NCBI GenBank assembly: GCA_963751515.1
Contig: CAVVUR010000016.1
Span: forward strand, 12,086 to 76,085
Length of the DNA: 64,000 bases
Direction of reading: 5' to 3'
Source: an uncultured delta proteobacterium
GTDB lineage: Bacteria > Desulfobacterota > WTBG01
Of this stretch, positions 4,176 to 19,340 are shown piece after piece. Both the position numbers and the translations under genes were made by a program. The notes under the pieces were generated by a model. It saw only the letters and a program-made list of their open reading frames with translations, searched no databases and had not been told where the DNA came from. Position 1 is the first letter of the stretch, and every line of letters starts with the position of its first letter.

Positions 4176-4205
4176 ATATCATCCTCTCCTGAAAGCCTTC
4201 AGAAT

Positions 4206-5678: not shown

Positions 5679-5820
5679 ATACGGTTCTCCTTAATTTATT
5701 CCGATTGGGTATCTATAGTGAATCAGCGTTCATTAGTCAAGCACTAATAGCAGGCAGTGGTGAGCCTCAGGCATGCGCGTCCGGGCATCATTATTCAGTG
5801 CAGCCGGGACATCGGCCGGT

Positions 5821-5938
5821 CTTAAAATCCGAAATCCGAATATCGAAATCCGAAACCACATACTGATGTGTGATGTGAGATCTGGGATATGAGATTAAAA
5901 TTTTTTTTAGCCCATATCACAAATCGCATATCCCATCC
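5821..5938 (+). repeat. Intergenic repeat family 3, copy 1 (heptamer tandem + hairpin with A/T loop)
   Basis: The sequence cttaaaatccgaaatccgaa...tgatgtgtgatgtgagatctgggatatgagattaaaattttttttagcccatatcaca recurs in inverted orientation at 56345..56438. It starts with tandem AATCCGA-like heptamers. It lies between two FAD-oxidase genes. Confidence 0.65.
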
Positions 5939-5961
5939 CGCATGGATTTAGTGCTTCGAAT

Positions 5962-7683: not shown

Positions 7684-7789
7684 TGCGCATCATTGTGGAA
7701 AGGGGCGGGAAAATGAAAGGCGGGGTGTGGCAGGCATTGTGCTGCACCCCGCTGACTGCTCTTCCCGAATTATCGCCGCAGTGGAGCGG

Positions 7790-9136
7790 CTAGCCGCGGG
7801 CCTGCATGGGGAAGCCCGCCCTGATGCACCCGTCAAAAACGGCGGCAAGCGGCACATTCCGCATCCCTACCAGCTTCTGATGAATAACGGGCCGCTGCTT
7901 GGCAACGGCCGGCATTATCTCCGCCAGGGCGCCGCCGACCAGTTTGGGGGTCTCATAAGGATCAAGGATGCTGGGCAGTGATTTTTTAACCAGGCTCAGC
8001 ACGAAGTCAATCTCGTCAGGGGTGAGCCGGAGGGGAAGCACGGCATTGCGCATCATGCTTCGGTAGTCGTATTTATCCAGCACCTCCTCTTTCCACCAGC
8101 GGAGGTAGGATGAAACCCCTTCGCGGGATATTTTTCCATCGGTCAGGGCAAAGCTGACGGCGTTGGCCGCCTTCCAGCCGCTGATAACCGCCCCGGTCAT
8201 CTCCGCCTCCTGGCACCACACCGCGTCGGAGACAAGCAGCACCTGGTCCTTGTAAGGATCGACAATGTGCGACTGCGCGTTGCCCGCGGAGGTCAGGGTG
8301 CGCTTTATCTCTGCCTTTTCGAACCAGGGCGCGAAAAATCCTTGTGTCGAGAATCGTTCAAAGGCGCCGGCGAGGTCCTGGCCGGGGCTGAGCGAGGTGG
8401 TCATGACGAAGTAGGTGTCCTCCGTCGTCCGCGGTGTCATCCACACGCGCTTGGAAGGTGTCTCGTCGAGAAATATCTGGAAGAGGGCAAATTTTTCCGG
8501 CGGCTTTACCCCCACCATTTCATACCCCAGGGTCACCGCAGTGCCGAAATACTTCCGATCCCGGTTGCAGCCCAGGGTGTGGGCTATTCTAGAGGCGCGG
8601 CCGTCGGCGGCGATGACGAAGGTGCCCCTGAAGGACCTTCCTTCGCGGGTGAAAACCGTCACCCTGCCTCCCTGCAACTCGGTCCGGATTACATTATACG
8701 GGTTATAGACATCAACCTTCAGGGCGCAGGCCTCCTCCAGGAGGCAGCGCAGCAGCGCCCCCTTATCGTACGTCGCGCTCACCCTGCCGCTCTCGCCCCT
8801 GCGCTCATTCTCTTCATAGTTGCCGAGCTGGATTTTGTTGCCCCGGTGGGAGTATATAGCCCAGGTGAAAAAGTCCTGGTGGGGGCCGTCATAGTTGACG
8901 GTAAAACCGTATCCCGGGAAGCAAAGCTTCTTGTCCCGGCTGTTTAAGCGTACCCGCTCCTCAAGATATTTCCCGGTCAGGGTCACCACCATCATGCTGC
9001 AGGCACGGTTGATATCAGTAATGTGCTCTTTTCGCTCGATCAGGGCCACGCTCAGCCCGTGTTCAGCTGCTGTTTTGGCTGCCATCAGGCCGGCAGGCCC
9101 TGCGCCGACTACGATCAGATCATATTCTCCGGGCAT
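7790..9136 (-). CDS. FAD-dependent oxidoreductase, geranylgeranyl-reductase/FixC-like superfamily
   Basis: A Rossmann motif YDLIVVGAGPAGLMAAKTAAEHGLSVALIERKE is present. The start was moved to the ATG at 9136, which has a GAGGAG RBS about 6 nt upstream. It is a paralogue of 12910..14208. Confidence 0.75.
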   Translation of the reverse strand: MPGEYDLIVVGAGPAGLMAAKTAAEHGLSVALIERKEHITDINRACSMMVVTLTGKYLEERVRLNSRDKKLCFPGYGFTVNYDGPHQDFFTWAIYSHRGNKIQLGNYEENERRGESGRVSATYDKGALLRCLLEEACALKVDVYNPYNVIRTELQGGRVTVFTREGRSFRGTFVIAADGRASRIAHTLGCNRDRKYFGTAVTLGYEMVGVKPPEKFALFQIFLDETPSKRVWMTPRTTEDTYFVMTTSLSPGQDLAGAFERFSTQGFFAPWFEKAEIKRTLTSAGNAQSHIVDPYKDQVLLVSDAVWCQEAEMTGAVISGWKAANAVSFALTDGKISREGVSSYLRWWKEEVLDKYDYRSMMRNAVLPLRLTPDEIDFVLSLVKKSLPSILDPYETPKLVGGALAEIMPAVAKQRPVIHQKLVGMRNVPLAAVFDGCIRAGFPMQARG

Positions 9137-9212
9137 CTTCACTCCTCTCATCATTCGTCATTACAATCAGTCTGCGCCGCTGCTCACACGCTCATGAGCG
9201 GCCACCGGCCCG

Positions 9213-9425
9213 TTACTCGTCAAGAATAGTGATCGCCTTTTCCGGGCAGGCGTCCTGGCAGGAAAGACAGCAGTGGCAGATCACGCCCGCCTCTTCGATT
9301 GCCTTGGCTTTTTTCTTTCCGTCCGGTGTTTCAATCAAAACCCACAGTTCCAGGCCGCACTGCTCAAGGCACTGCCCGCAGCCGCGGCACTTTTCCAGAT
9401 CGACCAGATGTTTCACCATATGCAT
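9213..9425 (-). CDS. 4Fe-4S dicluster ferredoxin (70 aa)
   Basis: Two cluster motifs are present: CRGCGQCLEQC and CHCCLSCQDACP. Confidence 0.75.
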   Translation of the reverse strand: MHMVKHLVDLEKCRGCGQCLEQCGLELWVLIETPDGKKKAKAIEEAGVICHCCLSCQDACPEKAITILDE

Positions 9426-9434
9426 GACACCTCA

Positions 9435-9842
9435 TCACAAAGTAGACTTAACCTCATCAACCATTTTTTTAAAGCGGGGATCTGATTCATACAGCCGGAC
9501 CATGGCATCGAAAAAGGGAAAGGTGGCCATGAGGTGGACGGGAACGTTGGGATCGGTCATATCGCCCTTCAGCAGCTCACCCTTGTCCTTGATTTCCATG
9601 AGATCGAAGGTGTTGTCGATGGCGCTGCAGAGATCAGCCGTTTTCAGCTTCAGCACCACGTGGCAGTCGTCCCGTATCCCCTGCTCCAGATAGAGCTTGC
9701 CGTCTTTTACCACCTGGGTGAACTCGTGCGCGTCAAGCTTCATGCCCACCTTGTGGTCACTGAAATCAGCCATCATCCCCTGCGCCGTTTCATCCGCATT
9801 GGTAAAATCGGCGCCTGCCGCAAGCATTTCCATAACCGACAT
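9435..9842 (-). CDS. Small soluble protein, SCP2 sterol/lipid-carrier-like (tentative)
   Basis: A GGGAGG RBS lies 8 nt upstream of the ATG at 9842. The C-terminal half (…LKTADLCSAIDNTFDLMEIKDKGELLKGDMTD…FPFF) resembles the SCP2 'G-K-L-x-I-x-G-D' region by eye only. Confidence 0.55.
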   Translation of the reverse strand: MSVMEMLAAGADFTNADETAQGMMADFSDHKVGMKLDAHEFTQVVKDGKLYLEQGIRDDCHVVLKLKTADLCSAIDNTFDLMEIKDKGELLKGDMTDPNVPVHLMATFPFFDAMVRLYESDPRFKKMVDEVKSTL

Positions 9843-9855
9843 GTCTCATCCCTCC

Positions 9856-10584
9856 CTAAAAATAGACAGCATTAAGCAGCTTGATCATGCCATCACCCAG
9901 TTCTTCCCGTACCGGACCCGGCAGCATTTCCGTAAAAAAATGGGCGCGCAGGGTGGTGCGCAGCGCCGAACGTTTTGCCGCCAGCTCCTTTTTCTTCGCC
10001 TCATCGGTAACCGGCACCGCCTCGGCAAGAAACGCGAGGTAGCTCTTGAGATATTCAGTGTGCGGGGCCAGGGCCGCCAGGCGCATCCCCTCCTTCTCGA
10101 TGGGAACCCGGGCCGCGGTGTAAATGATGGAGGCGAGAGAGCGGATGACATCGCTTTCCTCGGGACAAATGCCGGGCAGGGCGGCAAACCGGTCCCAGAG
10201 GGGCTGCACCGACTCAATATACTTCTTGCGGTATTCCTCATCCACCAGGCTGTCCACCGTGGGGATGATATCAACCAGAAGCATGACCTCCTCCGGCCCC
10301 TCTTCGAGACGCGAGAGAAACAGGGGCAGGTCATAGGCTTCCCCGGGCATGATGCTGCAGAAGGCAAAGTGCCTGCTGCCGGCATGGACAAAGGAGCCGA
10401 TGCCTATTTTTTCCAGCTTGTCAGCGCGGTATGCGCTGAACCCTCCCCGCGCTTGGCCTCTGGCAAACTCCAGTGCGGGCGCAAGATTCTGCCCATTCCA
10501 CTCCTGAAGCGCGGTGGGCTGCAGCGAATCAATCAGTCCCTTCATTTTTTCCAGATAGGGTGTCCATTTCACGCCTGCATCCAT
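9856..10584 (-). CDS. Ferredoxin-dependent bilin reductase (Fe_bilin_red)-like protein, divergent copy B
   Basis: An AGGAGG RBS lies 7 nt upstream of the ATG at 10584 (the track ORF starts at 10608). The core reads …FAFCSIMPGEAYDLPLFLSRLEEGPEEVMLLVDIIPTVDSL… This parallels the PcyA segment …YGLPLFGCDIVAG…AIADLSPT… by eye. Confidence 0.55.
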   Translation of the reverse strand: MDAGVKWTPYLEKMKGLIDSLQPTALQEWNGQNLAPALEFARGQARGGFSAYRADKLEKIGIGSFVHAGSRHFAFCSIMPGEAYDLPLFLSRLEEGPEEVMLLVDIIPTVDSLVDEEYRKKYIESVQPLWDRFAALPGICPEESDVIRSLASIIYTAARVPIEKEGMRLAALAPHTEYLKSYLAFLAEAVPVTDEAKKKELAAKRSALRTTLRAHFFTEMLPGPVREELGDGMIKLLNAVYF

Positions 10585-10597
10585 TTCTCTACCTCCT

Positions 10598-11365
10598 TTA
10601 AAAGACAAGGCTCACGAAGAGGTGGCTTTTTTCCGCGCCAAAAATCTTTTTCATCACCTCTCCGCCCGGATCAAGATCGCGGTAATATTTCTGGGTCTTG
10701 CTTTTTCTGCGCAGCATCTCCTGCCGGTACCCCTCATCCCGAATGGGCTCCGCCTGCTTCAGCAGGTCAAGCCACACCCTGGCATAGGCAACCACCGCCT
10801 CCATCAGTTTCACCCGGTCCACCTTCTCCTCCACCCGCCCGTCAAGGCTGAAGGGAGAGAGCGACTCGCGCGCCCAGGGCCAGGGCCCGTACCGTCTCTG
10901 CACCAGACACCGTCCCTCACTGGTAAATCCCGGTATGGTGCGGTACTTCCGCCACAGCGGCGCTATCTCCCGGTAGTATTTTTGCAGGTACTCCTCGTGC
11001 CGGGCGATGTCCACCGTGGGCATTAAATCCATGGTCACGCCCACCCGCGGCGCCGTTTCGTCAAACTCGCAGGCATAGATGGGCAGGTCATAATCGTTGC
11101 TCGCGGTCATGTTCAGGGCGCAGTACTTGGCCCGTCCCATGTAATGCAGCTCACCGATGGTAATCTTCTCGATTCTGTCGCTTCCCTTGATGAGGTATGG
11201 CTTGTAGAAGCCGGTGGCCATGGGTGTTTTAAACTCCCAGGCCGGCCTGGTGTCCATGCCCTGGTAGGTTTCAAGCGGCACCAGCTCCAGTCCTTCAAAC
11301 AGCCTATAATCCTCCACGATCACCTTCTCGAACGCCGTCATCTCATTCCATGCTACCTTTGCCAT
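10598..11365 (-). CDS. Ferredoxin-dependent bilin reductase (Fe_bilin_red)-like protein, copy A
   Basis: A GAGGAG RBS lies 7 nt upstream of the ATG at 11365. Two regions match FDBR landmarks by eye: …KYCALNMTASNDYDLPIYACEFDETAPRVGVTMDLMPTVD… and the C-terminal …YYRDLDPGGEVMKKIFGAEKSHLFVSLVF. The corresponding PcyA/PebA landmarks are '…LP.FGCDIV…DLSP…' and '…NDP…FG…F'. Confidence 0.6.
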   Translation of the reverse strand: MAKVAWNEMTAFEKVIVEDYRLFEGLELVPLETYQGMDTRPAWEFKTPMATGFYKPYLIKGSDRIEKITIGELHYMGRAKYCALNMTASNDYDLPIYACEFDETAPRVGVTMDLMPTVDIARHEEYLQKYYREIAPLWRKYRTIPGFTSEGRCLVQRRYGPWPWARESLSPFSLDGRVEEKVDRVKLMEAVVAYARVWLDLLKQAEPIRDEGYRQEMLRRKSKTQKYYRDLDPGGEVMKKIFGAEKSHLFVSLVF

Positions 11366-11496
11366 AACCACACTCCTCTTGTACGGTGGGTATTCCTGTC
11401 CGGCTTCGCCTTCATTTCCTTACGCTGCGGTTAAGCAACCGGCCGCGGCTGGCCCCTCAAATGCACCGGCATGCAAAACAATAGTTCCATAAAAAT

Positions 11497-11603: not shown

Positions 11604-11763
11604 CCGATAAATACAACTTTCCGTAAATCGACTTCTTCTTTCTGTTTGAGTGTATCAACAGACCATAGATATAACAATGTACTCTCCAGACCGTCCGATA
11701 AAAACATCCGGTACTCATTCAAGCGCGCGCTGTCGGACGTTGCGCAGGCTGTGCCGGTGGGGT

Positions 11764-12840
11764 ATGTTCATTGTATTCATGATTATCATCCGGCCTGTTA
11801 CCGCCTCTGCCGATAATGGACCTGTGCCGCCCGGTCAAGTATCAATAATCGGAGATGCGGCATTGCAGGACAGCGGAGTGACGAGACCGGAGGTGCGGCT
11901 TTTAGACTACGATGAAAAAGAAACCTCCCCTTCGATGCGGATGCTGCTGAGCGGCAAGAACCGGGCGAACGCAGAAACAGGTGATACGCGGCATGCTGCT
12001 CCTGACGATGCGGAATCAGGCAACGGGCAGGCCAACGCCCGGCACAAATGGCAAACGGTTCTGCCGGTGCTGGGAGAGGAGGCTGAAGCAAAGGGGCATA
12101 CCCTTCCCCTGGCCTTCGGGGTAATGCCGAGTTTCTATTCCGGAAGGCGGCACATCAGCGTGAGCGACGCGCAGGTTTCCATCAAGGGCCGGGCCATTGC
12201 CGTGGACGGGCTGACCGACATCAAGGTGAAGAGCAGGGAACTGAACTGGGCGCTGCGCCTTGACGCCTGGCTGTTCCCCTTTATGAACGTCTATGGGCTG
12301 TTCGGGTACACGCGCGAGGATGCCGATGCTTCAGTAGGTCTTACCCCCTACGATCGCCTGCGCAAGCGGTTTGGCAAACACCCCCGGGATCTTGACATAC
12401 ACATTGACCTGACCGGCGTCACCTACGGCGTGGGATATACCCTCGTCGGGGGATATAAAAAATTCTTTGCCTCATACGATTGGAATTACACCATCAGCGC
12501 GCTTCGGGGCAACATACCTTTGGGAAACAGCCTGAGTCCCGATGTGAAGGCGATGCTGAACTCCGTCCGCCTCGGATGGAGAGCGCAGGCGGCTGACTGT
12601 AAGATCAACCTCTGGATCGGCGAGACCTATTGGGACACCACCAACACCATAAAGGGCGACCCCCGGGTTCCGGTTTTGGGAACGGTCAAGTTCAGGGTGC
12701 GGGAGAAGACCTCGAAGCCGTGGAGCACTCACATCGGAACCAACGTCGAACTGTCGCCGTCCATTCAACTGGTGCTGGACATGGGATCAAACTTTTCCGG
12801 TCTTTTCGCCATCGCCCCCACCATCATGTACCGTTTCTAG
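11764..12840 (+). CDS. Putative outer-membrane beta-barrel protein
   Basis: A signal-like N-terminus (MFIVFMIIIRPVTASA) is present. An alternative start at 11677 would add a basic n-region. The mature part has alternating-polarity strands, and the C-terminal …TIMYRF ends in an aromatic residue, as OMPs typically do. Confidence 0.55.
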   Translation: MFIVFMIIIRPVTASADNGPVPPGQVSIIGDAALQDSGVTRPEVRLLDYDEKETSPSMRMLLSGKNRANAETGDTRHAAPDDAESGNGQANARHKWQTVLPVLGEEAEAKGHTLPLAFGVMPSFYSGRRHISVSDAQVSIKGRAIAVDGLTDIKVKSRELNWALRLDAWLFPFMNVYGLFGYTREDADASVGLTPYDRLRKRFGKHPRDLDIHIDLTGVTYGVGYTLVGGYKKFFASYDWNYTISALRGNIPLGNSLSPDVKAMLNSVRLGWRAQAADCKINLWIGETYWDTTNTIKGDPRVPVLGTVKFRVREKTSKPWSTHIGTNVELSPSIQLVLDMGSNFSGLFAIAPTIMYRF

Positions 12841-12858
12841 CAGCTGGTAAGAAACAAA

Positions 12859-12883
12859 AGGCCGGGGATGCATGTCCCGGCCT
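12859..12883. terminator. Hairpin between convergent genes (possible bidirectional terminator)
   Basis: The sequence aggccgggg-atgcatg-tcccggcct forms a 9-bp stem. It is flanked by A/T-rich runs on both sides. Confidence 0.45.
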
Positions 12884-12909: not shown

Positions 12910-14208
12910 TTAGCCGTCCTTGAGGCTGCTTTCAAGGGTACTGCTGCGGACGCTCCTGATTTTTGCGTAGGTGGCAGGGCGTTCCCGCTCAATCTTCTTC
13001 GGATCGCGCAGGATTGCGTCCCATATCATCCGGGATGACTTGTACTGGCTGAAGCTCCCGTCCAGGAGCACATCCTCACACAGGCCGAAAAGGTAGTCAA
13101 GCTCGTCATCGGTGTAGGTAGGCACAAAGGCATATCCCTGCTGCACCTGCATCATACCCTTGTCATTGAACTCAAATGATTTAAGCCACCAGTCGGCGTA
13201 TTCCGCGAACCCCGTTTCACCCTTGAGTTCCCTGGCAACCGCCTCCGCGGCCTTATAACCGCAGCTCAAAGCCCCCTGCCCCTGCACTTCAACAAACGCG
13301 GCAGAATCTCCTATAATTATAGTATTGCCTTTGCAGGGCTGGGCAATAGGGGTAAATGCCTTGACCGAACAGCAGTAGCGCTCTTCAATCTTGGCGTTGG
13401 CGAACCGGTCGGCTATGGGGCTGTCTTTGGTAAACCGGCCAAAGGCCTCCAGCGGCAGGTCCCGGGGACTGCCGAGACTAATCACATCCGCCCAGTCCTC
13501 AAAATGGCCGGCAGGCCCGGTGCCGATGATGGGAGCAAGATTTGAGCCGTAGCACCTGCCATACCAGAGAACCCACTCGGCAGGGTTATAGTGCTTCACA
13601 CCCGACATGTAGCTGGCCATGCAGAGGGCAAAACCCATGTAGCCGCGATTGGCATTGAAACCCATTGCCTGCCCCAGTCGGGTATTGCAACCGTCGGCGA
13701 TGATGAGCTTTTTCGCCTTCACTTTCTCCTTCTTTCCCCTGCTTACGCACTTGACCTCAACCCCCTGGGCGCTGTCGATCGCGTCATAGCCGCTGGTTTC
13801 ATTTCTGAAGGTGACCCCCAGCGCCAGACATTCCTCGAGCAGGCTCCCCAGCAGGAAACCCTTGTCGTACTTGTAGGCATACGGCCGGCGGTCAGGCCAG
13901 GCGAAGTGGATGGCCCTGCGCTTGGGAGAATAGTACCATTTGTCTATGCAGGGGAACAAAGCCCCCTTATAGTCCACCACCCACCCGTTCACCGTGGAGG
14001 TTATGGTGCCTTTTTTAGGATCCACTAAAACCGTATCTCCATTATAGTCTTCATCGAGTATCAAATGCTCGCTGCAGTAACGGGTAATTTTGGAGATGTC
14101 TTTGCGCTTCTCAATGAGAATCGTCTTGAGCCCCTTCTTGGCCGCCCACTTGGCAGCATGCACACCTCCGGGACCGGCGCCCACAATGGCAAGATCGTAA
14201 ACCGTCAT
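12910..14208 (-). CDS. FAD-dependent oxidoreductase, geranylgeranyl-reductase/FixC-like superfamily (paralogue 2)
   Basis: The N-terminus reads MTVYDLAIVGAGPGGVHAAKWAAKKGLKTILIEKRKD… The overall architecture resembles 7790..9136. It is the last gene of the NuoEFG-like operon. Confidence 0.75.
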   Translation of the reverse strand: MTVYDLAIVGAGPGGVHAAKWAAKKGLKTILIEKRKDISKITRYCSEHLILDEDYNGDTVLVDPKKGTITSTVNGWVVDYKGALFPCIDKWYYSPKRRAIHFAWPDRRPYAYKYDKGFLLGSLLEECLALGVTFRNETSGYDAIDSAQGVEVKCVSRGKKEKVKAKKLIIADGCNTRLGQAMGFNANRGYMGFALCMASYMSGVKHYNPAEWVLWYGRCYGSNLAPIIGTGPAGHFEDWADVISLGSPRDLPLEAFGRFTKDSPIADRFANAKIEERYCCSVKAFTPIAQPCKGNTIIIGDSAAFVEVQGQGALSCGYKAAEAVARELKGETGFAEYADWWLKSFEFNDKGMMQVQQGYAFVPTYTDDELDYLFGLCEDVLLDGSFSQYKSSRMIWDAILRDPKKIERERPATYAKIRSVRSSTLESSLKDG

Positions 14209-14257
14209 TACTTCCTCCTTGGATGCTTACATATTCATTCAGAATTGCGGCAACTCT

Positions 14258-15196
14258 CTAGCTGATGGCCTGCATGGGACAGATGAGCTCGCAGCTGTGG
14301 CAGGCAGTGCAGTTCTGCGGATAGAGCTGCGCCTTTTTATCATAACCGCCCTTATCCTCGAGCTCCAGCGCGCCGCAGGGGCAGTTCTCCATGCAGCCGC
14401 CGCAGCCCAGGCACTTGTCCTGGTCAACCACCGGATACTGCCGGCACGAGGGGCAGATGTCAAAAAATTCATTGGGCAGATTCTTTTCCCGCTTCACCTT
14501 TTCCAGATGCGGCTCCGGCGCGTAGGGATTGCCGCACTTTTTGCAGCACTTCAGTTTGTGCTCCACCTTCCAGTTCAGGATCTCCCGCTGCGGACCGGTT
14601 TGATCGCACCCGTCCGGCGTGCAGAGCGCGGTGGAAAACAGGTCGTTTTTCTTGATGATGCCGGTGGGACAGATGAAGGCGCATGAGCCGCAGGCAATGC
14701 AGTCATCCGCGGTCTTGCTGAAGGGCGAGTCCACCAGCTTGCCCAGGCCGCGTCCCGCAAACTGAATGGCGCCCGCCTTGACCACGTCGTTGCAGGCGCG
14801 GACGCACAGCCCGCAGAGTATGCAGTACTCATTATCCTTTCCCATCTGCTGGGCGATTTCGGTCACCCCGTACTCCGCGGCCAGCTCCTGGACCATCTGC
14901 ACGTTGGGGCAGCGCGCCAGATGGAGCTCGAGAATCATCTTGCGCGCTTCTTTGATGCGGGGGGTGTGGGTGTGCACCTCCAGCCCGTCGCTCACCGGGT
15001 AGGTGCAGGATGTGTCCACCGTCACCCTCCCGTTTTTCCCGATCTCCACCACGCAGAGGCGGCAGGCGCCATAGGGCTTGAGCGCGTCATTCGAACACAG
15101 CGTGGGTATCTCAATCTCATTGGCCCGCGCCGCCTGAAGGATGGTCATGCCCTCCTCTGCCTTTATTTTCCTTCCGTTTATCTTTAAGCTCACCAT
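14258..15196 (-). CDS. 2Fe-2S + multi-4Fe-4S iron-sulfur protein (NuoG/HydA N-terminal-like, no catalytic domain)
   Basis: The start is the ATG at 15196 (MVSLKINGRKIKAEEGMTILQAA…). A plant-type 2Fe-2S N-domain is present (…CSNDALKPYGACRLCVVE). Several CxxCxxCxxxCP motifs follow (CILCGLCVRAC, CIACGSCAFICP, CLGCGGCMENCP, CTACHSCELICP). Confidence 0.75.
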   Translation of the reverse strand: MVSLKINGRKIKAEEGMTILQAARANEIEIPTLCSNDALKPYGACRLCVVEIGKNGRVTVDTSCTYPVSDGLEVHTHTPRIKEARKMILELHLARCPNVQMVQELAAEYGVTEIAQQMGKDNEYCILCGLCVRACNDVVKAGAIQFAGRGLGKLVDSPFSKTADDCIACGSCAFICPTGIIKKNDLFSTALCTPDGCDQTGPQREILNWKVEHKLKCCKKCGNPYAPEPHLEKVKREKNLPNEFFDICPSCRQYPVVDQDKCLGCGGCMENCPCGALELEDKGGYDKKAQLYPQNCTACHSCELICPMQAIS

Positions 15197-15236
15197 AAAT
15201 ATCATCCTCTCTCGTATCGCTACGCCGTTTATGCCC

Positions 15237-16967
15237 TTACGCTTTCTTTCTGAGCAGTTTGCCTTCAATCACCTGCGGGAAATGGGTGAGCACCGAGATA
15301 AAGGGCACCGCTGCGGTTTTGCCCAGGGCGCAGGCGCCGGTATCCGACAGTGCCGATGCCAGGCGCTTGACCAGGGCTATGTGCTCGCTTGTTCCCTGCC
15401 CTTCCATCACGTCAGTTATGATCTGCTGGAGCCGCTTGGTGCCCTCCCTGCAGATGCTGCACTTTCCGCAGGACTCGTCGGCAAAAAAGTCGGTGAAAAA
15501 CTTTGCCATCTCCAGCAGGTCCGTGTCCTCATCCATGACCACCAGCCCGCCGGAACCGAGCAGGCTTCCTTCCTTGGCCAGGCGATCGTAGTCGAGCTTG
15601 ATCTTCAGCAGTTTGGCCGGCAGAATGCCGCCTGAGGGGCCTCCCGCCTGGAAACCTTTTATCTTCTTGCCGTTGGCGGCGCCGCCGCCGAAGGTTTCAA
15701 TGATCTCCCCGATCTCCATGCCCAGCGGTACCTCCACCCAGCAACTCCGGGCCACATGGCCGGACAGGGCCACAATTTTCGTGCCGGTGCTGCCGGGCGT
15801 ACCGATACCCGCATACCACTTCCCGCCCTTGGCGATAATGGCGGGAATGGTTGCCAGGGTCTCGAGATTGTTGACCACAGTGGGTTTGTTGAAAAGCCCG
15901 CTTTCGGCGGGATACGGGGGCCGCGGCCTCGGCTCGCCGAACGAGCCTTCCAGCGCATTGAGCAGCGCCGTTTCCTCGCCGCACACGTACGCCCCTCCTC
16001 CCCGCTTCACCCGCAGGGAGAAAGAAAATCCCGAACCCGCTATATTGCTCCCGATCAGGCCCAGGGCTTCCGCCCCCTCGATGGCCCGGATGAGCCGCTC
16101 GTGGGCCACCTGGTACCGGTCATTCAAATAAATGTAGCCTTCCGATGCGCCCACCGCGTAGCCGGCGAGGGCCATCCCCTCTATGACCGCGTGGGGATCC
16201 GATTCCAGAAAGCTCCGGTGCATGCCGATTTCGGGATCGCCCTCGCTGCCGTTGGCGACAATGTACTTGGCATTCCCGGCCGCCTGACGGCAGGCCTGCA
16301 GCTTAATACCCGCCGGGAATCCGGCGCCGCCCCGGCCGCGGAGCTTGGACACGGTTACTTCCCTGATGACTTCATCCGGACTCATGGAGGTCACCGCTTT
16401 CAGCAGCGCCTGGTAGCCGCCCAGCGCGCAATATTCCTCAACCTGCTCCGGGCTGACCGTGCCGGCGTTTTTGCTGATGAGCTTCATCTGCTTTTTGAAA
16501 AAATCGAACTTCCCGCATTCTTTGAGCGCGGCCGCGTCCTTGGGGACTTTCGCCCCGGCATACTTGATCGATACACCGCCTTCCGCGGTTAACCTGTCCA
16601 TCCTCATCAGGGCCAGATCCTTGACCACGCCCCCCTTTGCCACCGAGGCCACCAGGTCAGGAACCCGTTCCACGCTCACCCGGCCATAGGTGATGCGCGG
16701 CTTTCCCGGGCAGATCACTTCAACAATGGGTTCGGCATAGCAAAGACCGTTGCAGCCCACCACCACCACATCAGCCTTGGCTTTCTGCTTCTTAATCTCA
16801 TACTTCAGGGCTTCAAAAATCTTCCCCGCGCCCTTGGCCAATCCGCAGGTTGCCATGCCGACGGTAATCCGGGCACGTGCCGGCGTCAGCATGCTGAGCC
16901 CCTTCTTCTGTATCGCGTTCAGGTCAAGCGGTTTATCCTGTTTCATAGACTCCCCTTTATCATTCAC
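15237..16967 (-). CDS. NuoF/HydB-like NADH-binding FMN/FeS flavoprotein with N-terminal thioredoxin-like 2Fe-2S domain
   Basis: The motifs are GRGGAGFPAGIKLQ (NADH/FMN), ESCGKCSICREG (the N3-type 4Fe-4S) and N-terminal …CGLAKGAG…VGCNGLCYAEP. Confidence 0.85.
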   Translation of the reverse strand: MNDKGESMKQDKPLDLNAIQKKGLSMLTPARARITVGMATCGLAKGAGKIFEALKYEIKKQKAKADVVVVGCNGLCYAEPIVEVICPGKPRITYGRVSVERVPDLVASVAKGGVVKDLALMRMDRLTAEGGVSIKYAGAKVPKDAAALKECGKFDFFKKQMKLISKNAGTVSPEQVEEYCALGGYQALLKAVTSMSPDEVIREVTVSKLRGRGGAGFPAGIKLQACRQAAGNAKYIVANGSEGDPEIGMHRSFLESDPHAVIEGMALAGYAVGASEGYIYLNDRYQVAHERLIRAIEGAEALGLIGSNIAGSGFSFSLRVKRGGGAYVCGEETALLNALEGSFGEPRPRPPYPAESGLFNKPTVVNNLETLATIPAIIAKGGKWYAGIGTPGSTGTKIVALSGHVARSCWVEVPLGMEIGEIIETFGGGAANGKKIKGFQAGGPSGGILPAKLLKIKLDYDRLAKEGSLLGSGGLVVMDEDTDLLEMAKFFTDFFADESCGKCSICREGTKRLQQIITDVMEGQGTSEHIALVKRLASALSDTGACALGKTAAVPFISVLTHFPQVIEGKLLRKKA

Positions 16968-17709
16968 CTAACATTTCTGAAATCTTGGTATGGGCATCAT
17001 CACCGCTGTACATTTCACCGTTCACCAGCACCGCGGGCGAAAGGTCGCAGCAGCCCAGGCATCGCACCTTTTCCAGGTTAATGTCCGCGTCCGGCGAGGC
17101 CGCTTTCTCCTCAAGCTGTTTCAGCATTGAACCGCTGCCCTTGAGGTGGCACCCCGTGCCGTCACAGACGCTCACCGTGTATTTTCTGGGCGAATCGGTT
17201 GGAAACGCCGTGAATGAGGTTACCAGCCGGTAGAGGGTGCTCATAAAAACGTTTTTCTTCTGGCTCACCACCCGCAGCGCCTCTTCCGGCACATGGCCGA
17301 ACTTGGCCTTCAGGGCGTGAAGTATGGCGGGGACTGATTCCTGGCCGCCGGGATATGACGCCACGATGCCTTCAACCACGCTTATGTCAACACCTCCCAT
17401 GGTGGCAAAACCCTTGAGGATGTTGGACTTGAACGGCTCGGGCACTATTTCATTGACGATCTCCACAACCTGGGCTTCCTGGTAGGCCCCGCCCTTCGCC
17501 TTCTGCCCGAGTATATCCATCAGTTTCACCCGGAACACATCCTGCAGCGATTCCGGCACCTCCTTGATCATGAGCTCAAACATGGCCTTGCTGCTGCCCG
17601 CCCATGCGCCCGGGGCCGCAGCCTGGGGAGCCTGAGCAGTTGCAGGAGACGAAGCTTTCGCCGGTGAGCTCTTCTTTGCGCCTGCTTTCATACGCTTACT
17701 CTTAGACAT
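16960..17709 (-). CDS. NuoE/HydC-like 2Fe-2S protein with ~110-aa N-terminal extension
   Basis: The C-terminal part carries …VCDGTGCHLKG…VRCLGCCDLSPAV… The N-terminal part is an Ala/Pro/Lys-rich tail followed by an unassigned ~70-aa region. Confidence 0.75.
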   Translation of the reverse strand: MSKSKRMKAGAKKSSPAKASSPATAQAPQAAAPGAWAGSSKAMFELMIKEVPESLQDVFRVKLMDILGQKAKGGAYQEAQVVEIVNEIVPEPFKSNILKGFATMGGVDISVVEGIVASYPGGQESVPAILHALKAKFGHVPEEALRVVSQKKNVFMSTLYRLVTSFTAFPTDSPRKYTVSVCDGTGCHLKGSGSMLKQLEEKAASPDADINLEKVRCLGCCDLSPAVLVNGEMYSGDDAHTKISEMLGE

Positions 17710-17752
17710 TACCTGCTCCTTTCAACGATATCCCGAAGCCGGGACACTCATC

Positions 17753-18484
17753 TTATGCAACCGCGTCAAGATACTGCTGTATCAGGCCTTCCAGTTGTTT
17801 ATACGCCCGGTCAACCGATGCCTGTGCCTCGGCCATTTCCCCCTCGCTCAGCTTTTCAAACCGCCCCTGCGCCTTGAGATAGTCGGCAAGCGGCCTGGGC
17901 TTCCCCGTCTTCACCGTAAGGCCGTACGCGCCCGCGCCCGCTTCATACAGAGGAAAGGCCCGGCCTTCCACCGCCAGCCGCCCCAGTTTTACCGTGAAAT
18001 CCGCATCAAACTTCCAGCCCGGGGGGCAGGGACAGAGCACGTGCACATAGGCGTCGGCAGTGCTTTTGAAGGCCCGCTTCATCTTGTCGTACAGGTCAAA
18101 GGGATAGCTGGGACAGGCCGTGGCCACATAGTTGAAACCCTGTGACGCAGCGAGCTGGGGCATGGGTTTCTCAAGCAGGTCGGCGAGAGATCCGCCCGCT
18201 TCGTTATCGCAGCAGATCACCAGCTTCCCCCGGGCCTTGGGAATGGTCAAAAAGGTGACATCGGTCGCGCCCGTTCCGAAGTGCCCGGAACCGGCAGTGC
18301 CGGCCCTCCCATGCTCCGCTGACGCCCAGGCCCCCTTTTCAATGCTCATGCCCAGGGCCTTGTATGTCTGGCGGATGGCCAGCGCCAGCCCGCATCCCGG
18401 GCATGCCTGGTTCAGCTCAGGGACGAAGTATTCCTTACAAGGCAGGAAATTAGAAACATAGAGACTGTACTTATCCATTGTCAT
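17753..18484 (-). CDS. Pyruvate/2-oxoacid:ferredoxin oxidoreductase beta-subunit-like protein (degenerate)
   Basis: The start ATG at 18484 overlaps the upstream stop (ATGA). The PorB-like N-terminal motif …CPGCGLALAIRQ… is present. I cannot find a clear GDG…N TPP/Mg motif (the region reads GKLVICCDNEAGG). Confidence 0.6.
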   Translation of the reverse strand: MTMDKYSLYVSNFLPCKEYFVPELNQACPGCGLALAIRQTYKALGMSIEKGAWASAEHGRAGTAGSGHFGTGATDVTFLTIPKARGKLVICCDNEAGGSLADLLEKPMPQLAASQGFNYVATACPSYPFDLYDKMKRAFKSTADAYVHVLCPCPPGWKFDADFTVKLGRLAVEGRAFPLYEAGAGAYGLTVKTGKPRPLADYLKAQGRFEKLSEGEMAEAQASVDRAYKQLEGLIQQYLDAVA

Positions 18485-18768
18485 TCCTCCTTGAACATGC
18501 TGATGGCCCCGAACCAGCATTCCCGGTGGCATATGCCGCAGCCCTTGCACTTGGCGGTATCAGCTTCGAAATAACCCTCCTCATTGCGGAACACCGCACC
18601 GTCGGGACAGTACACAAAGCAGAGCCCGCAGCGGATGCATTTGTCCTTGTCCCACTCCGGCGTCCACTCCCGCGCGTCTCCCGGCCGAAATGGCGTGCCA
18701 CTGCCCTGATCAAGCAACGAGCAGCTGATCATCTTTTTCTGAAATCCCGCAGTCGATTCCAAAATCAC
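18481..18768 (-). CDS. PFOR delta-subunit-like 2x[4Fe-4S] ferredoxin
   Basis: The sequence …DKDKCIRCGLCFVYCPDGA…DTAKCKGCGICHRECWFGAI… has the typical PorD layout. Confidence 0.7.
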   Translation of the reverse strand: MILESTAGFQKKMISCSLLDQGSGTPFRPGDAREWTPEWDKDKCIRCGLCFVYCPDGAVFRNEEGYFEADTAKCKGCGICHRECWFGAISMFKEE

Positions 18769-18835
18769 ATCTCCTTTGCAAAAAGTTTACCTGCACTAAC
18801 CATGAACCATGTTCATATTCGCCGTGACCGCAATC

Positions 18836-19006
18836 CTACACTTCTGCCGGCGCCTTCACCGGGCAGACTTTCACGCATGTCCGGCACTCCAGGCAGAGCT
18901 GCACGTCCACAAATGCGCGGTCCTTGACAAAACAGATGGCCGTCCGGGGGCAGAGATCCACGCACCCGCCGCACCCAACACACTTTTCCCTGTCAATTCG
19001 AATCAC
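18836..19006 (-). CDS. Small 2x[4Fe-4S] ferredoxin (56 aa, GTG start), not in the ORF track
   Basis: My own translation is (M)IRIDREKCVGCGGCVDLCPRTAICFVKDRAFVDVQLCLECRTCVKVCPVKAPAEV*. An AAGGAG RBS lies 8 nt upstream of the GTG at 19006. It is the first gene after a good promoter. Confidence 0.6.
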   Translation of the reverse strand: MIRIDREKCVGCGGCVDLCPRTAICFVKDRAFVDVQLCLECRTCVKVCPVKAPAEV

Positions 19007-19110
19007 CCTGCGTCTCCTTTAAGCGCCGTGCCTGCTTTCACCCGGTTTTGGCACAGCAATCCGGTTATGCGCCCGCTCCCGGGCACGGAAAAATAAGACC
19101 GAGACCGTAT

Positions 19111-19139
19111 CTATAATATTTTTATTCCGCGGCTGTCAA
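19111..19139 (-). promoter_or_regulatory. Candidate sigma70 promoter of the ferredoxin/PFOR-like/NuoEFG-like operon
   Basis: On the minus strand there is a perfect TTGACA (19139-19134). It is followed by a 15-17 nt spacer and overlapping TATTAT/TTATAG (19118-19111). Confidence 0.4.
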
Positions 19140-19263: not shown

Positions 19264-19340
19264 TGGTGGCGGTGCAGGGAGTCGAACCCCGGACACTGCG
19301 GATATGAGCCGCATGCTCTAACCACCTGAGCTACACCGCC
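19264..19340 (-). tRNA. tRNA with CAU anticodon (elongator Met type; lysidine-modified Ile2 not excluded)
   Basis: The reverse complement is GGCGGTGTAGCTCAGGTGGTTAGAGCATGCGGCTCATATCCGCAGTGTCCGGGGTTCGACTCCCTGCACCGCCACCA. It folds as a cloverleaf with a 7-bp acceptor stem, anticodon loop CTCATAT and an encoded CCA. The 1:72 position is paired and the anticodon stem lacks the GGG/CCC triplet, so it is not an initiator. Confidence 0.9.

Follow-up and report, generated by a model that had tools for sequence, protein, structure and literature searches.

We analysed a seven-gene operon within a 64,000-nucleotide stretch of DNA from an uncultured delta proteobacterium (hereafter the window), and give roughly even credence to the reading that its products form an NADH-dependent reductase system that operates without canonical bifurcation and is built on a re-used Por-Bfu electron-transfer scaffold. 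Sequence comparison indicates that the operon is a derivative of Por-Bfu, a catalogued type that the initial annotation had missed, because its nearest canonical PFOR-like relatives sit in Por-Bfu operons with the same gene order. Within the BfuABC family, Por-Bfu belongs to Type 2 (BfuB clade 45) and is predicted to oxidise pyruvate (Schut et al. 2022, PMC9304861).

Operon layout and conservation

All seven genes are co-directional on the minus strand and span 12910-19006, as the initial annotation had placed them (Table 1), with intergenic gaps of no more than 70 nt and a Shine-Dalgarno sequence at 7/7 start codons. The promoter previously proposed at 19111-19139 is best kept as a candidate, since a perfect -35 element (TTGACA, 19139-19134) is paired with a weak, AT-rich -10 (TATTAT at N15 or TATAGA at N18) and a consensus promoter scan did not call it; an Rfam search of the leader of roughly 100 nt returned no element. 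Scanning the coding strand within the seven-gene unit revealed no terminator-like site, such that the internal interruption against which the initial annotation had cautioned was not seen. Directly 3' of the GGR stop, between it and a convergent 396-aa gene, lies a strong hairpin (GGCCGGG-N9-CCCGGCC) followed by a T-run (TTTTGTTTCTT), and the terminator scan gave this same 12848-12883 hairpin on the plus strand.

Table 1. Features of the seven-gene operon and its flanking signals (positions in the window).
Feature	Position	Strand	Basis
Intrinsic terminator	12848..12883 (approximate)	-	Read from minus-strand sequence
GGR-superfamily FAD flavoprotein, 432 aa	12910..14208	-	TIGR02032, fold match
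NuoG-N-terminal-like/stand-alone BfuA, 312 aa	14258..15196	-	Pfam, Fer2_4
NuoF/BfuB-like, NADH and FMN binding, 569 aa	15237..16946	-	PF01512, SLBB, PF10589
NuoE/BfuC-like, [2Fe-2S]	16960..17709	-	PF01257, residues 113-236
PorB-like, short, 241 aa (265-aa ORF)	17753..18478	-	Partial PorB model match
PorD-like (PFOR delta), 2x[4Fe-4S]	18481..18768	-	TIGR02179
Ferredoxin Fd56, 56 aa, 2x[4Fe-4S]	18836..19006	-	Fer4 families match, 8 Cys
Promoter-like element	19110..19139	-	Read directly from sequence

The genes are kept together elsewhere, another point on which the earlier reading depended: the identical seven-gene order recurs in 22 further loci with unrelated flanks (GGR identity 51-95%) and is partly visible in 6 more at contig ends. 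Ratios of dN/dS fell between 0.05 and 0.24 for all seven genes, revealing purifying selection. Every carrier is an uncultured MAG or SAG.

A Por-Bfu scaffold with losses and additions

Among canonical PorB proteins, those closest to the PorB-like subunit (34-36% identity) are encoded in PorG-PorD-PorA-PorB-BfuC-BfuB-BfuA operons, which have the order PorD...PorB-BfuC-BfuB-BfuA in common with the seven-gene operon. Identity to one such Por-Bfu operon (L086) was 47% for the NuoG-like protein (BfuA), 44% for the NuoF-like protein (BfuB) and 59% for PorD, and both systems possess a Type 2 BfuA with A1, A2, A4 and a CxxC...CxxC site and without A3. They differ in that Por-Bfu has PorA and PorG, neither of which was found in any of the 22 loci, whereas the seven-gene operon has a PorB that is about 65 residues shorter and without the TPP motif, a BfuB lacking both its B2 ligands and its B3/B4 ferredoxin domain, a BfuA plus a C-terminal 2x[4Fe-4S] domain (two extra [4Fe-4S] clusters; the L086 BfuA ends where this domain starts), a BfuC plus an N-terminal domain, and an added ferredoxin and GGR-like flavoprotein, one at each end.

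The PFOR-delta-like and PFOR-beta-like subunits are indeed orphans, as first annotated, with the correction that the beta subunit has its TPP motif deleted. The PorD-like protein scores 75.8 bits against TIGR02179 (cutoff 60), and its 8/8 Cys are invariant among orthologues. The PorB-like protein, named a PFOR beta subunit in the source databases, reads as a PFOR beta remnant: it resembles PorB solely at a CPGCG motif near the N terminus and over its C-terminal half, a Pfam search returned no match at all (PF02775 included), and alignment with canonical Por-Bfu PorB places deletions over the third cluster Cys and the GDG and NTG motifs. The GDG and NTG segments, which bind the TPP diphosphate, are deleted throughout the short PorB family (~118 clusters), and superposition on OOR/PFOR beta covers ~130 residues (2.4-2.5 A), only half of the beta fold being left. 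One [4Fe-4S] cluster is probably retained (conserved Cys, in the numbering of the 265-aa ORF: C50, C53, C113, C173, C175), an assignment made uncertain by the loss of the canonical third Cys and by the lack of the compensating C173 in some members.

These features weigh on whether the operon might still encode a Por-Bfu-like 2-oxoacid:acceptor oxidoreductase, with PorA and PorG encoded elsewhere and the GGR-like gene a passenger. Both PFOR-like proteins are genuinely homologous to their Por-Bfu counterparts, the gene order is identical and the database product name agrees, but TPP chemistry is absent given the GDG/NTG deletion across the short family, the undetected PF02775 and the 0/22 loci with PorA or PorG. 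With the beta fold halved and the GGR gene strictly co-conserved besides, we regard such residual activity as very improbable.

The assignment of the NuoEFG-like trio as Bfu-type was borne out, with the NuoF-like protein closest to NfnB, HydB and WorB (E about 1e-134 to 1e-148), the NuoE-like protein finding its best PDB matches among HydC/NfnC-type subunits, and the NuoG-like protein finding its best match in WorA (9mqx_A, residues 28-277), the stand-alone BfuA of WorABCSL. The NuoE-like protein has an N-terminal extension of ~110 aa, whose motifs, like the Cys ligands of the protein, are kept in 22 orthologues, and the canonical Por-Bfu BfuC is shorter (156-164 aa). Predicted sites in the NuoG-like protein comprise A1 ([2Fe-2S]), A2 and A4 ([4Fe-4S]), a zinc-finger-like CxxC...CxxC site and the C-terminal 2x[4Fe-4S] domain, which brings the predicted [4Fe-4S] sites to four; the protein lacks a catalytic domain. 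It has no HxxxCxxC motif, and the A3 cluster is accordingly absent, as in Type 2 BfuA. Its length is held at 301-320 aa among 24 orthologues with all cluster cysteines kept, and so the suspicion that it could be a pseudogene fragment of a hydrogenase or FDH did not hold up.

Electron input and the question of bifurcation

The FMN and NADH motifs of the NuoF-like protein are strictly conserved, and its B1 [4Fe-4S] site, together with C1, is consistent with NADH input. Its extra N-terminal domain is thioredoxin-like as annotated, while the [2Fe-2S] site proposed there is probably not a regular one, since the domain offers just 3 Cys plus a Glu and even those are gone in one clade. To evaluate the protein for the features of bifurcating HydB, we used the published Bfu signature (PMC9304861, PMC11829005). 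In alignments to solved BfuB chains, the B2 ligand positions (Cys, Cys or Thr, His) are occupied by D483, M521 and K570, and the protein stops ahead of the ferredoxin domain. The B2 Cys ligands, the conserved His and the C-terminal 2x[4Fe-4S] B3/B4 domain are absent in 22/22 NuoF-like orthologues, and no Fer4 domain occurs among the top 120 homologues. The literature regards B3/B4 as essential for bifurcation, which is abolished in the T. kivui HydABC when they are deleted (PMC11829005), and the non-bifurcating homologues known lack the same B2/B3/B4 sites (PMC11829005; PMC9304861). Because the NuoF-like subunit is without the B2 ligands, the His and the B3/B4 domain, the bifurcating or confurcating reductase envisaged by the initial annotation appears unlikely in its canonical Bfu form.

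A BC core of just FMN, B1 and C1 is also found in the HoxEFU diaphorase, in FdsBG of NAD-dependent formate dehydrogenase and in the complex I N-module, but the seven-gene core is closer in sequence to bifurcating BfuB and BfuC and retains the Bfu-type N-terminal thioredoxin-like domain, which argues for a secondarily simplified Bfu outside those lineages. A structural precedent for its adaptor is WorABCSL of Acetomicrobium mobile (PDB 9MQX, PMC12318220), in which WorA, likewise a stand-alone BfuA without catalytic domain or A3 and with a zinc-finger-like C-terminal site, plugs an extra FeS subunit chain into the BC core. There, the catalytic partner is a tungstopterin aldehyde oxidoreductase reached via a polyferredoxin, whereas in the seven-gene operon it would be a flavoprotein reached via PFOR-derived subunits; moreover, WorB has B2 (Zn), B3, B4 and B5 and bifurcates, whereas the NuoF-like protein lacks B2, B3 and B4.

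We propose that NADH would give up its electrons to the FMN of the NuoF-like protein, from which they would pass singly via B1 to A1, A2 and A4 of the BfuA-like subunit and onward to its extra C-terminal 2x[4Fe-4S] domain. They would then cross the three clusters of the PorD-like/PorB-like pair, which may serve as the old PFOR wire minus TPP, to reach the dedicated 56-aa ferredoxin, which would pass them to the FAD of the GGR-like flavoprotein for the hydrogenation of C=C bonds in a putative substrate, most likely of an isoprenoid-type or tetrapyrrole-derived class. A linear NADH-to-FAD route has no obvious need for ~ten [4Fe-4S] and two [2Fe-2S] clusters, and a PFOR-type docking module with a free-type ferredoxin gives the system a three-terminal look that would fit bifurcation as well.

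We therefore weighed a non-canonical bifurcating or confurcating enzyme, in which the low-potential branch would be the PorD/PorB-like pair and Fd56, in place of the C-terminal domain lost from BfuB. By analogy with Bcd-Etf, exergonic C=C reduction by NADH would drive ferredoxin reduction (2 NADH + Fd(ox) + substrate -> 2 NAD+ + Fd(red) + product); in the confurcating version, NADH and reduced ferredoxin would both be spent on a hard-to-reduce substrate. The large potential gap from NADH to an alkene would be worth conserving. Structurally, the BC core has bifurcating enzymes alone as its closest relatives, a PFOR-type ferredoxin-docking module is kept, as is a ferredoxin of clostridial type that varies least of all the subunits, and the NuoE-like subunit has its conserved extra N-terminal domain; the minimal flavobicluster B1-FMN-C1 is also present (PMC11829005). 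Against this, every orthologue lacks the B2 site and B3/B4 domain, and homology with WorA and with the BfuA of Por-Bfu places the attachment of the additional FeS domains at the A4 end, on the mid-potential path, and not beside C1. Simple GGR-ferredoxin pairs further suggest that the ferredoxin is donor to the flavoprotein and not a product, and on balance we consider this alternative rather unlikely.

The flavoprotein, its ferredoxin and the FDBR-like neighbours

Of the seven products, Fd56 is the best conserved (77-98% identity across loci versus 51-95% for GGR), with 8/8 Cys invariant among 15 distinct orthologues. Fd56-like genes (37-45% identical) adjoin GGR-family genes as simple two-gene pairs, and GGR-family genes of about 46% identity are found as such GGR+Fd pairs. 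Archaea provide documented cases of a GGR co-transcribed with a ferredoxin dedicated to it (PMC6401487). The archaeal systems closest to the present one are T. kodakarensis Fd-2/TK1087 with GGR/TK1088 and the M. acetivorans GGR with its ferredoxin, where the small 2x[4Fe-4S] protein is the specific donor; in T. kodakarensis, a PFOR-family enzyme in turn reduces that ferredoxin (PMC6401487).

The GGR-like protein shares with archaeal GGR the fold, the GxGxxG motif (here GAGPGG) and a conserved Cys of catalytic type close to the flavin (invariant C45), and has IIGD. Its model (pLDDT 79) found its best fold match in T. acidophilum GGR (3OZ2, TM 0.69/0.74). It differs in its ~20% identity to the archaeal enzymes, in a TIGR02032 score of 63 bits that falls under the cutoff of 158.8, and in that PxxYxWxFP, the cavity motif that is the GGR signature, is not conserved; further, the seven-gene operon has bacterial hosts and encodes its own donor system, starting from NADH. 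Its candidacy as catalytic partner, put forward in the initial annotation, gained from its consistent co-encoding across loci, and we presume it to be a catalytic C=C reductase, a function suggested by the modelled GGR fold alone.

The case for the supply of the adjacent FDBR-like pathway, as proposed earlier, was weakened. Physical linkage to an FDBR-like operon is confined to the four closest relatives (L004-L006, L016), and most seven-gene operons have unrelated neighbours, but a looser functional association does hold: in 20/85 loci (9 of them Bacillota), GGR-family and FDBR-like genes are no more than 10 kb apart, a co-occurrence of the GGR-like family with FDBR-like genes seen in both Desulfobacterota and Bacillota. 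Such links raise the alternative that PorD-PorB-NuoE-NuoF-NuoG is an autonomous NADH:ferredoxin oxidoreductase, a free-standing hub that would keep Fd56 reduced as it diffuses to clients such as GGR1, its GGR2 paralogue and the adjacent FDBR-like enzymes, with the GGR-like protein co-transcribed yet no subunit. FDBR enzymes are ferredoxin-dependent by definition (Pfam PF05996), and Fd56-like genes directly adjoin FDBR-like genes in four loci (L050, L051, L071, L079). A sister clade (L084, L089, L090) carries the five-gene core without adjacent GGR or Fd, which weakens the case for a stable seven-subunit complex, and in L010 a second, divergent core set has other GGR-superfamily flavoproteins on its flanks, from which the core is seen to be modular. 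This alternative is nonetheless rather unlikely in our judgement, as the uphill step from NADH to ferredoxin would, if there is no bifurcation, call for a ferredoxin of unusually high potential or a downstream pull, the GGR gene is always last and in a fixed position across 22 loci while FDBR genes are usually elsewhere, and the TPP-less PorB has no explained role in a plain ferredoxin reductase.

To summarize its biology, we return to the NADH-to-flavoprotein route as our preferred reading, under which the seven-gene set looks like a bifurcating pyruvate enzyme that was rebuilt, in uncultured relatives of sulfate reducers, into an NADH-fed iron-sulfur wire for a GGR-like flavoenzyme.

Organization and recurrence of the seven-gene operon

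Adopting the shorter gene starts, which match the gene calls on the identical public contig as well as orthologue conservation, we found the seven genes to run head to tail from 19006 to 12910 on the minus strand (see table). Shine-Dalgarno sequences precede all seven start codons, and no intergenic gap exceeds 70 nt. The initial annotation had read these genes as one uninterrupted operon, and this was borne out by a terminator scan of the coding strand that found no terminator-like site within the unit, with a GC-rich hairpin and then TTTTGTTTCTT lying directly 3' of the GGR (geranylgeranyl reductase-like) stop codon. Upstream, a perfect -35 TTGACA is paired with a weak -10, and we consider this element a candidate promoter only. 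The leader had no Rfam match, hence no riboswitch was found, and none of the seven products contained a membrane-spanning or hydrophobic segment. A tRNA-Met gene (anticodon CAT) lies directly upstream in the same direction and the Dehalococcoides Por-Bfu cluster likewise has tRNA genes at its flanks (Schut et al. 2022, PMC9304861), a shared feature that may be coincidence.

Table. Features of the window considered here, with family matches where available.
Feature	Position	Strand	Family match or remark
VAO/GGR/FDBR cluster	2463-11371	minus	adjoins the seven-gene operon
396-aa protein	11650-12840	plus	no family match
GGR-superfamily flavoprotein, 432 aa	12910-14208	minus	
NuoG-N-terminal-like FeS protein, 312 aa	14258-15196	minus	PF13510, Fer4 families
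NuoF-like, 569 aa	15237-16946	minus	FMN-binding 51K PF01512 (3.9e-39), SLBB PF10531 (1.9e-06), NADH_4Fe-4S PF10589 (2.8e-26)
NuoE-like	16960-17709	minus	PF01257 (1.2e-25)
NuoE-like N-terminal extension, residues 1-112	17374-17709	minus	no Pfam family match
PFOR-beta-like (PorB-like), 241 aa	17753-18478	minus	
PFOR-delta-like (PorD-like)	18481-18768	minus	TIGR02179, 75.8 bits (cutoff 60)
Fd56, 2x[4Fe-4S] ferredoxin, 56 aa	18836-19006	minus	
-35 element TTGACA	19139-19134	minus	
tRNA-Met (CAT)	19264-19340	minus	
838-aa protein	25109-27625	minus	thrombospondin type 3 repeats, dockerin domain
Bacterial serpin, 409 aa	56466-57695	plus	PF00079 (1.7e-130)

We then assessed how widely this arrangement recurs. 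A scan using one genome per species returned 80 loci encoding relatives of the GGR-like flavoprotein, and tBLASTn with all window proteins revealed the full order Fd-PorD-PorB-NuoE-NuoF-NuoG-GGR in 21 distinct loci, with one further locus coming from a separate look-up and six contig-truncated loci showing the order in part. The flavoproteins of the syntenic loci are 51-95% identical to that of the window, and since the flanks vary between these loci we interpret the seven genes to travel as a unit, in keeping with the co-conservation that the single-operon reading had presupposed. Each gene has a dN/dS of 0.05-0.24 against a 92%-identical relative, and the most conserved subunit is Fd56 (77-98% identical across loci). 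All carriers are uncultured MAGs or SAGs, mostly labelled Thermodesulfobacteriota or Deltaproteobacteria, the exceptions by label being one Spirochaetota SAG and one Myxococcota MAG. In two long-read MAGs (L006 7241-8512 and L016 7278-8441) the NuoF ORFs look truncated (423 and 387 aa) with similarity continuing downstream, which probably reflects frameshift errors of sequencing and not true pseudogenes. As for the NuoG-like gene, the possibility that it is a pseudogene fragment of a hydrogenase or formate dehydrogenase, raised in the initial annotation, was discarded given its length, conserved cysteines, dN/dS of 0.11, and homology to stand-alone WorA and to the BfuA of Por-Bfu operons.

A NuoEFG-like core probably derived from the Por-Bfu type

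We evaluated the NuoE-, NuoF- and NuoG-like subunits as counterparts of BfuC, BfuB and BfuA, respectively, of the electron-bifurcating Bfu family. The NuoF-like protein was closest to the BfuB of solved bifurcating enzymes (NfnB, StnB, NiFe- and FeFe-HydB, WorB; E = 1e-134 to 1e-148), while the NuoE-like protein was most similar to the corresponding BfuC subunits and the NuoG-like protein to WorA. The domains used as criteria were IPR011538, IPR019554 and IPR019575 together with a C-terminal 2x[4Fe-4S] domain (IPR017896) for BfuB, IPR002023 for BfuC, and for BfuA a minimum of one [2Fe-2S] and one ferredoxin-type [4Fe-4S] domain. Much of the core is retained, including the FMN and NADH motifs of the NuoF-like protein (kept in 22 orthologues), both cluster sites B1 (CxxCxxC...C) and C1 ([2Fe-2S]), as well as the conserved ligand cysteines of the NuoG-like protein. 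A thioredoxin-like N-terminal domain (residues 33-111 of the NuoF-like protein) aligns to NfnB and HydB; its three Cys and one Glu, which resemble the Zn site found in C. saccharolyticus NfnB, might correspond to the B5 site of BfuB, and in a 660-aa clade Ser, Gly or Ala stands in place of these Cys.

Missing from this core are the B2 site and the C-terminal 2x[4Fe-4S] (B3/B4) domain. The NuoF-like protein ends 8 residues past its NADH_4Fe-4S domain without a Fer4 match, such that its alignment to solved BfuB chains of 584-630 aa stops at approximately residue 518-532. All 22 orthologues share this end point, and no Fer4 domain was found among the best 120 NuoF-like database homologues. Using as reference the B2 ligands of A. 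mobile NiFe-HydB (C438, C476 or Thr, H525, C531, C536), we found D483, M521 and K570 in place of the Cys, Cys/Thr and His of bifurcating BfuB, with the chain ending before the last two Cys and no His or Cys conserved in the B2 columns of the orthologues. The BfuB of L086, a canonical Por-Bfu operon, possesses all B2 ligands and the B3/B4 domain. Among the features that define BfuB in the literature are a C-terminal domain of ferredoxin type and a His that hardly varies (PMC9304861), and non-bifurcating homologues are missing sites B2-B5, with T. kivui HydABC no longer bifurcating once without B3/B4 (PMC11829005). Measured against these published tests, canonical Bfu bifurcation by the window enzyme appears unlikely from its sequence, which weakens the bifurcating or confurcating reductase that the initial annotation had thought possible.

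Other parts of the core have grown. The BfuA-like subunit has gained a C-terminal 2x[4Fe-4S] domain and the BfuC-like subunit a conserved N-terminal domain of ~110 aa, the latter consisting of low-complexity Ala/Pro/Ser sequence followed by the motifs MFE.M..EVP and IV.EiVP.PFK. Orthologues of the NuoE-like protein span 234-336 aa, as compared to 156-164 aa for the extension-free BfuC of canonical Por-Bfu operons.

To place this core we looked to the PFOR-derived subunits. The eight Cys of the PorD-like protein are invariant. The PorB-like protein falls in a family that comprises ~118 clusters, 220-262 aa in length, and its first canonical PorB relatives appear at 34-36% identity, both residing in PorG-PorD-PorA-PorB-BfuC-BfuB-BfuA operons, which is the Por-Bfu layout predicted by Schut et al. 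2022 (PMC9304861). Against L086, the NuoG-like protein is 47% identical to BfuA, the NuoF-like protein 44% to BfuB, and the PorD-like protein 59% to PorD, and the por genes stand directly upstream of bfuC-bfuB-bfuA in the window as they do in L086 and L087, a second canonical Por-Bfu operon. Taking together the nearest canonical PorB proteins, these subunit identities and the shared gene order, the window operon is best read as a derivative of Por-Bfu. Relative to that type it has gained the ferredoxin gene at its 5' end and the GGR-like gene at its 3' end, and PorA and PorG, present in L086 and L087, are absent from the window operon and all 22 syntenic loci.

The PorB-like protein itself has no match to the TPP-binding family PF02775 (GDG...NTG), nor does any member of its short family have a TPP-domain match. 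Compared with the canonical PorB proteins P0239 and P0240, three deletions have removed the third cluster Cys together with two pieces of the TPP motif, GDG and NTG, and only ~130 residues of its model superpose on the beta subunit of OOR/PFOR. PFOR activity with trans-encoded subunits was rejected since the TPP motif is deleted throughout the short PorB family. PFOR beta and delta appear to persist as a pure iron-sulfur wire after TPP loss, for which we found no description in the literature. We also considered whether Fd56 or the NuoG C-terminal domain might be the relocated B3/B4 domain of BfuB, but their BLAST similarity to the L086 BfuB C-terminus (31-44% over 48-94 aa) is no better than that between any two 2x[4Fe-4S] domains and so speaks neither for nor against it.

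The GGR-like flavoprotein and its genomic associations

The operon's final gene encodes a flavoprotein with a GAGPGG sequence at residues 10-15 (GxGxxG, FAD-binding) and an IxGD motif. Its model (pLDDT 79) has T. acidophilum GGR 3OZ2 as the best PDB fold match (TM 0.69/0.74, E = 3.5e-23, 20% identity), followed by flavin halogenases and monooxygenases, with FixC (7koe_C) at rank 26. From the initial label "GGR/FixC-like" the GGR part is thus retained and the FixC part is not. A FixC/EtfQO (FixABCX) reading was rejected given this rank, a sequence match confined to the FAD-binding N-terminus, and the lack of Etf genes nearby, there being no Etf (FixAB) genes in the window operon or the syntenic loci. 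All 24 orthologues have C45, which lies in an RYCSEH stretch one position past the aligned R44 of 3OZ2 and, judging from the alignment, corresponds to the archaeal GGR catalytic Cys that comes after the first beta-alpha-beta unit (Cys47 of S. acidocaldarius GGR). No match to the PxxYxWxFP cavity motif was found, only a degenerate PAEWVLWYG at residue 209 of which P, E and W are conserved, and the TIGR02032 score (63.1 bits) falls below its cutoff of 158.8, so we assign the flavoprotein to a distinct family within the GGR superfamily. Its predicted fold suggests C=C reduction. More distant family members (~46% identical) form two-gene pairs with an Fd56-like ferredoxin, resembling the dedicated Fd-GGR pairs documented in archaea (PMC6401487).

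Next to the operon, the VAO/GGR/FDBR cluster contains three paralogous VAO-type FAD_binding_4 proteins (570, 490 and 573 aa; a PDB sequence search with one of them matched the FAD-binding domain alone), a more remote paralogue of the operon GGR (454 aa, 27% identity), a 135-aa protein without any family match, and a tandem pair of FDBR-like proteins (250 and 257 aa; PF05996, one below the Pfam cutoff). The functional link to this cluster proposed initially stood at the level of families rather than of the two operons. Only the four closest relatives have the two operons side by side, and an FDBR-like gene lies within 10 kb of a GGR-family gene in 20 of 85 loci, nine of them Bacillota. In the isolate Ruminiclostridium papyrosolvens C7 (L075 8981-12571) an FDBR-like gene precedes a tandem pair of GGR-like paralogues, and other such loci include L047, L048, L066, L068, L070, L078, L081 and L083 as well as the Desulfobacterota loci L050, L051, L069, L071 and L079. 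Several Desulfobacterota loci also have an Fd56-like gene immediately next to an FDBR-like gene. This family-level link, supported by the Fd56-FDBR neighbours, suggests from gene context that GGR-like and FDBR-like families share a pathway of ferredoxin-dependent double-bond reductions in non-photosynthetic anaerobes. Our literature search found nothing on FDBR-like genes in Clostridia or Deltaproteobacteria, and the gene clusters of the pre-PcyA paper differ from these. Three Bacillota loci (L060, L072, L083) possess NuoEFG-like genes 4-9 kb from GGR-family genes, and these are 31-42% identical and probably ordinary HydABC-type.

Only two operon neighbours recur, each downstream in five loci of the more distant clades, and we rejected them as a substrate clue because such recurrence is insufficient for assigning one. 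They are a membrane-anchored metallophosphoesterase of ~413 aa directly after the GGR gene (L001 11469-12710, L013, L014, L033, L037) and a UbiD-family decarboxylase gene 2-9 kb downstream of the operon (L001, L017, L033, L034, L037), which in L001 has a UbiA prenyltransferase gene beside it; these neighbours hint, if weakly, at prenylated substrates. The two operons of the window are separated by a convergent gene for a 396-aa protein with an apparent signal-like N-terminus and beta-rich C-terminal part with a terminal aromatic residue, which is kept at the same position in the close relatives L004-L006 (58-79% identical). Elsewhere the window encodes a dockerin-containing 838-aa protein and a bacterial serpin, and a serpin also occurs upstream of the seven-gene operon in L085.

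Proposed electron route and meaning for the family

Summing the predicted cofactors gives FMN, FAD, two [2Fe-2S] and ~ten [4Fe-4S] clusters, the latter being B1, A2, A4, two extra in the BfuA-like subunit, two each in PorD and Fd56, and probably one in PorB. In WorABCSL, the 247-aa WorA serves as a stand-alone BfuA linking an FeS nanowire to the BC core, and added FeS subunits attach at its A4 end (PMC12318220). By analogy, this precedent and the cofactor inventory suggest a linear route. Electrons would pass from NADH to FMN/B1, then to A1/A2/A4 of the BfuA-like subunit, through its extra C-terminal clusters to PorD/PorB, and via Fd56 to the FAD of the GGR-like protein and the substrate. As NADH would readily reduce a C=C acceptor, the ferredoxin branch could have become dispensable.

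As an alternative to a fixed seven-subunit complex, the five-gene core may be a general NADH-driven ferredoxin-reducing hub. Consistent with a hub, a sister clade (L084 332-4992, L089 162-5196, L090 1190-4417) has only PorD-PorB-NuoE-NuoF-NuoG, its PorB-like protein being 43-45% identical and no ferredoxin or GGR-like gene adjoining the core in these three loci, and L010 has a second, divergent core with other flavoproteins of the GGR superfamily on either side. Near the core of L084, on the opposite strand, lies a gene for an MMPL-family transporter. The second module copy of L010 (2782-9664) directly follows the first and is ordered Fd, GGR2-like (452 aa), PorD (90 aa), short PorB (236 aa), NuoE (219 aa), NuoF (474 aa), NuoG (318 aa) and a FAD_binding_3 flavoprotein (388 aa); its NuoF is without the N-terminal thioredoxin-like and C-terminal ferredoxin domains, and its NuoG has the C-terminal 2x[4Fe-4S] domain.

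A bolder and, in our estimation, improbable reading is a non-canonical flavin/FeS bifurcation in which the PorD/PorB-like proteins and Fd56 replace the lost B3/B4, coupling NADH-driven C=C hydrogenation of lipid or pigment to reduced ferredoxin, so that uncultured Desulfobacterota of sediments would conserve energy by a form of "alkene respiration". The retained PFOR-type ferredoxin-docking module and the strong conservation of a free-type ferredoxin speak for it, and the loss of B2 and B3/B4 from the NuoF-like protein and its 22 orthologues speaks against it. If so, such respiration may act on detritus derived from chlorophyll, bilins or isoprenoids, together with the associated FDBR-like and VAO-type reductases.

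The system combines known kinds of parts: the scaffold of Por-Bfu, an adaptor of the WorA type and a GGR-ferredoxin pair. A geranylgeranyl-reductase partner does not feature in the Bfu catalogue, and because its search rule demanded the BfuB ferredoxin domain (PMC9304861) the window clade would have been left out; we also found no paper joining GGR-like proteins with NuoEFG or Por subunits. These genes represent a conserved, uncharacterised reductase system of ~120 protein clusters in at least 22 species-level Thermodesulfobacteriota MAGs and single Spirochaetota- and Myxococcota-labelled genomes. They further provide a natural experiment on Bfu bifurcation, in which the B1-FMN-C1 core and BfuA adaptor were kept while B2, B3 and B4 were discarded, a loss that coincides with a switch of partner, the low-potential TPP enzyme giving way to a flavoprotein that presumably handles a high-potential C=C bond, such that the proposed role of the B3/B4 branch becomes directly testable by comparison. 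Beyond this family, the cross-phylum FDBR link points to an anaerobic pathway that saturates isoprenoid- or tetrapyrrole-like double bonds in sediments and in plant-degrading clostridia.
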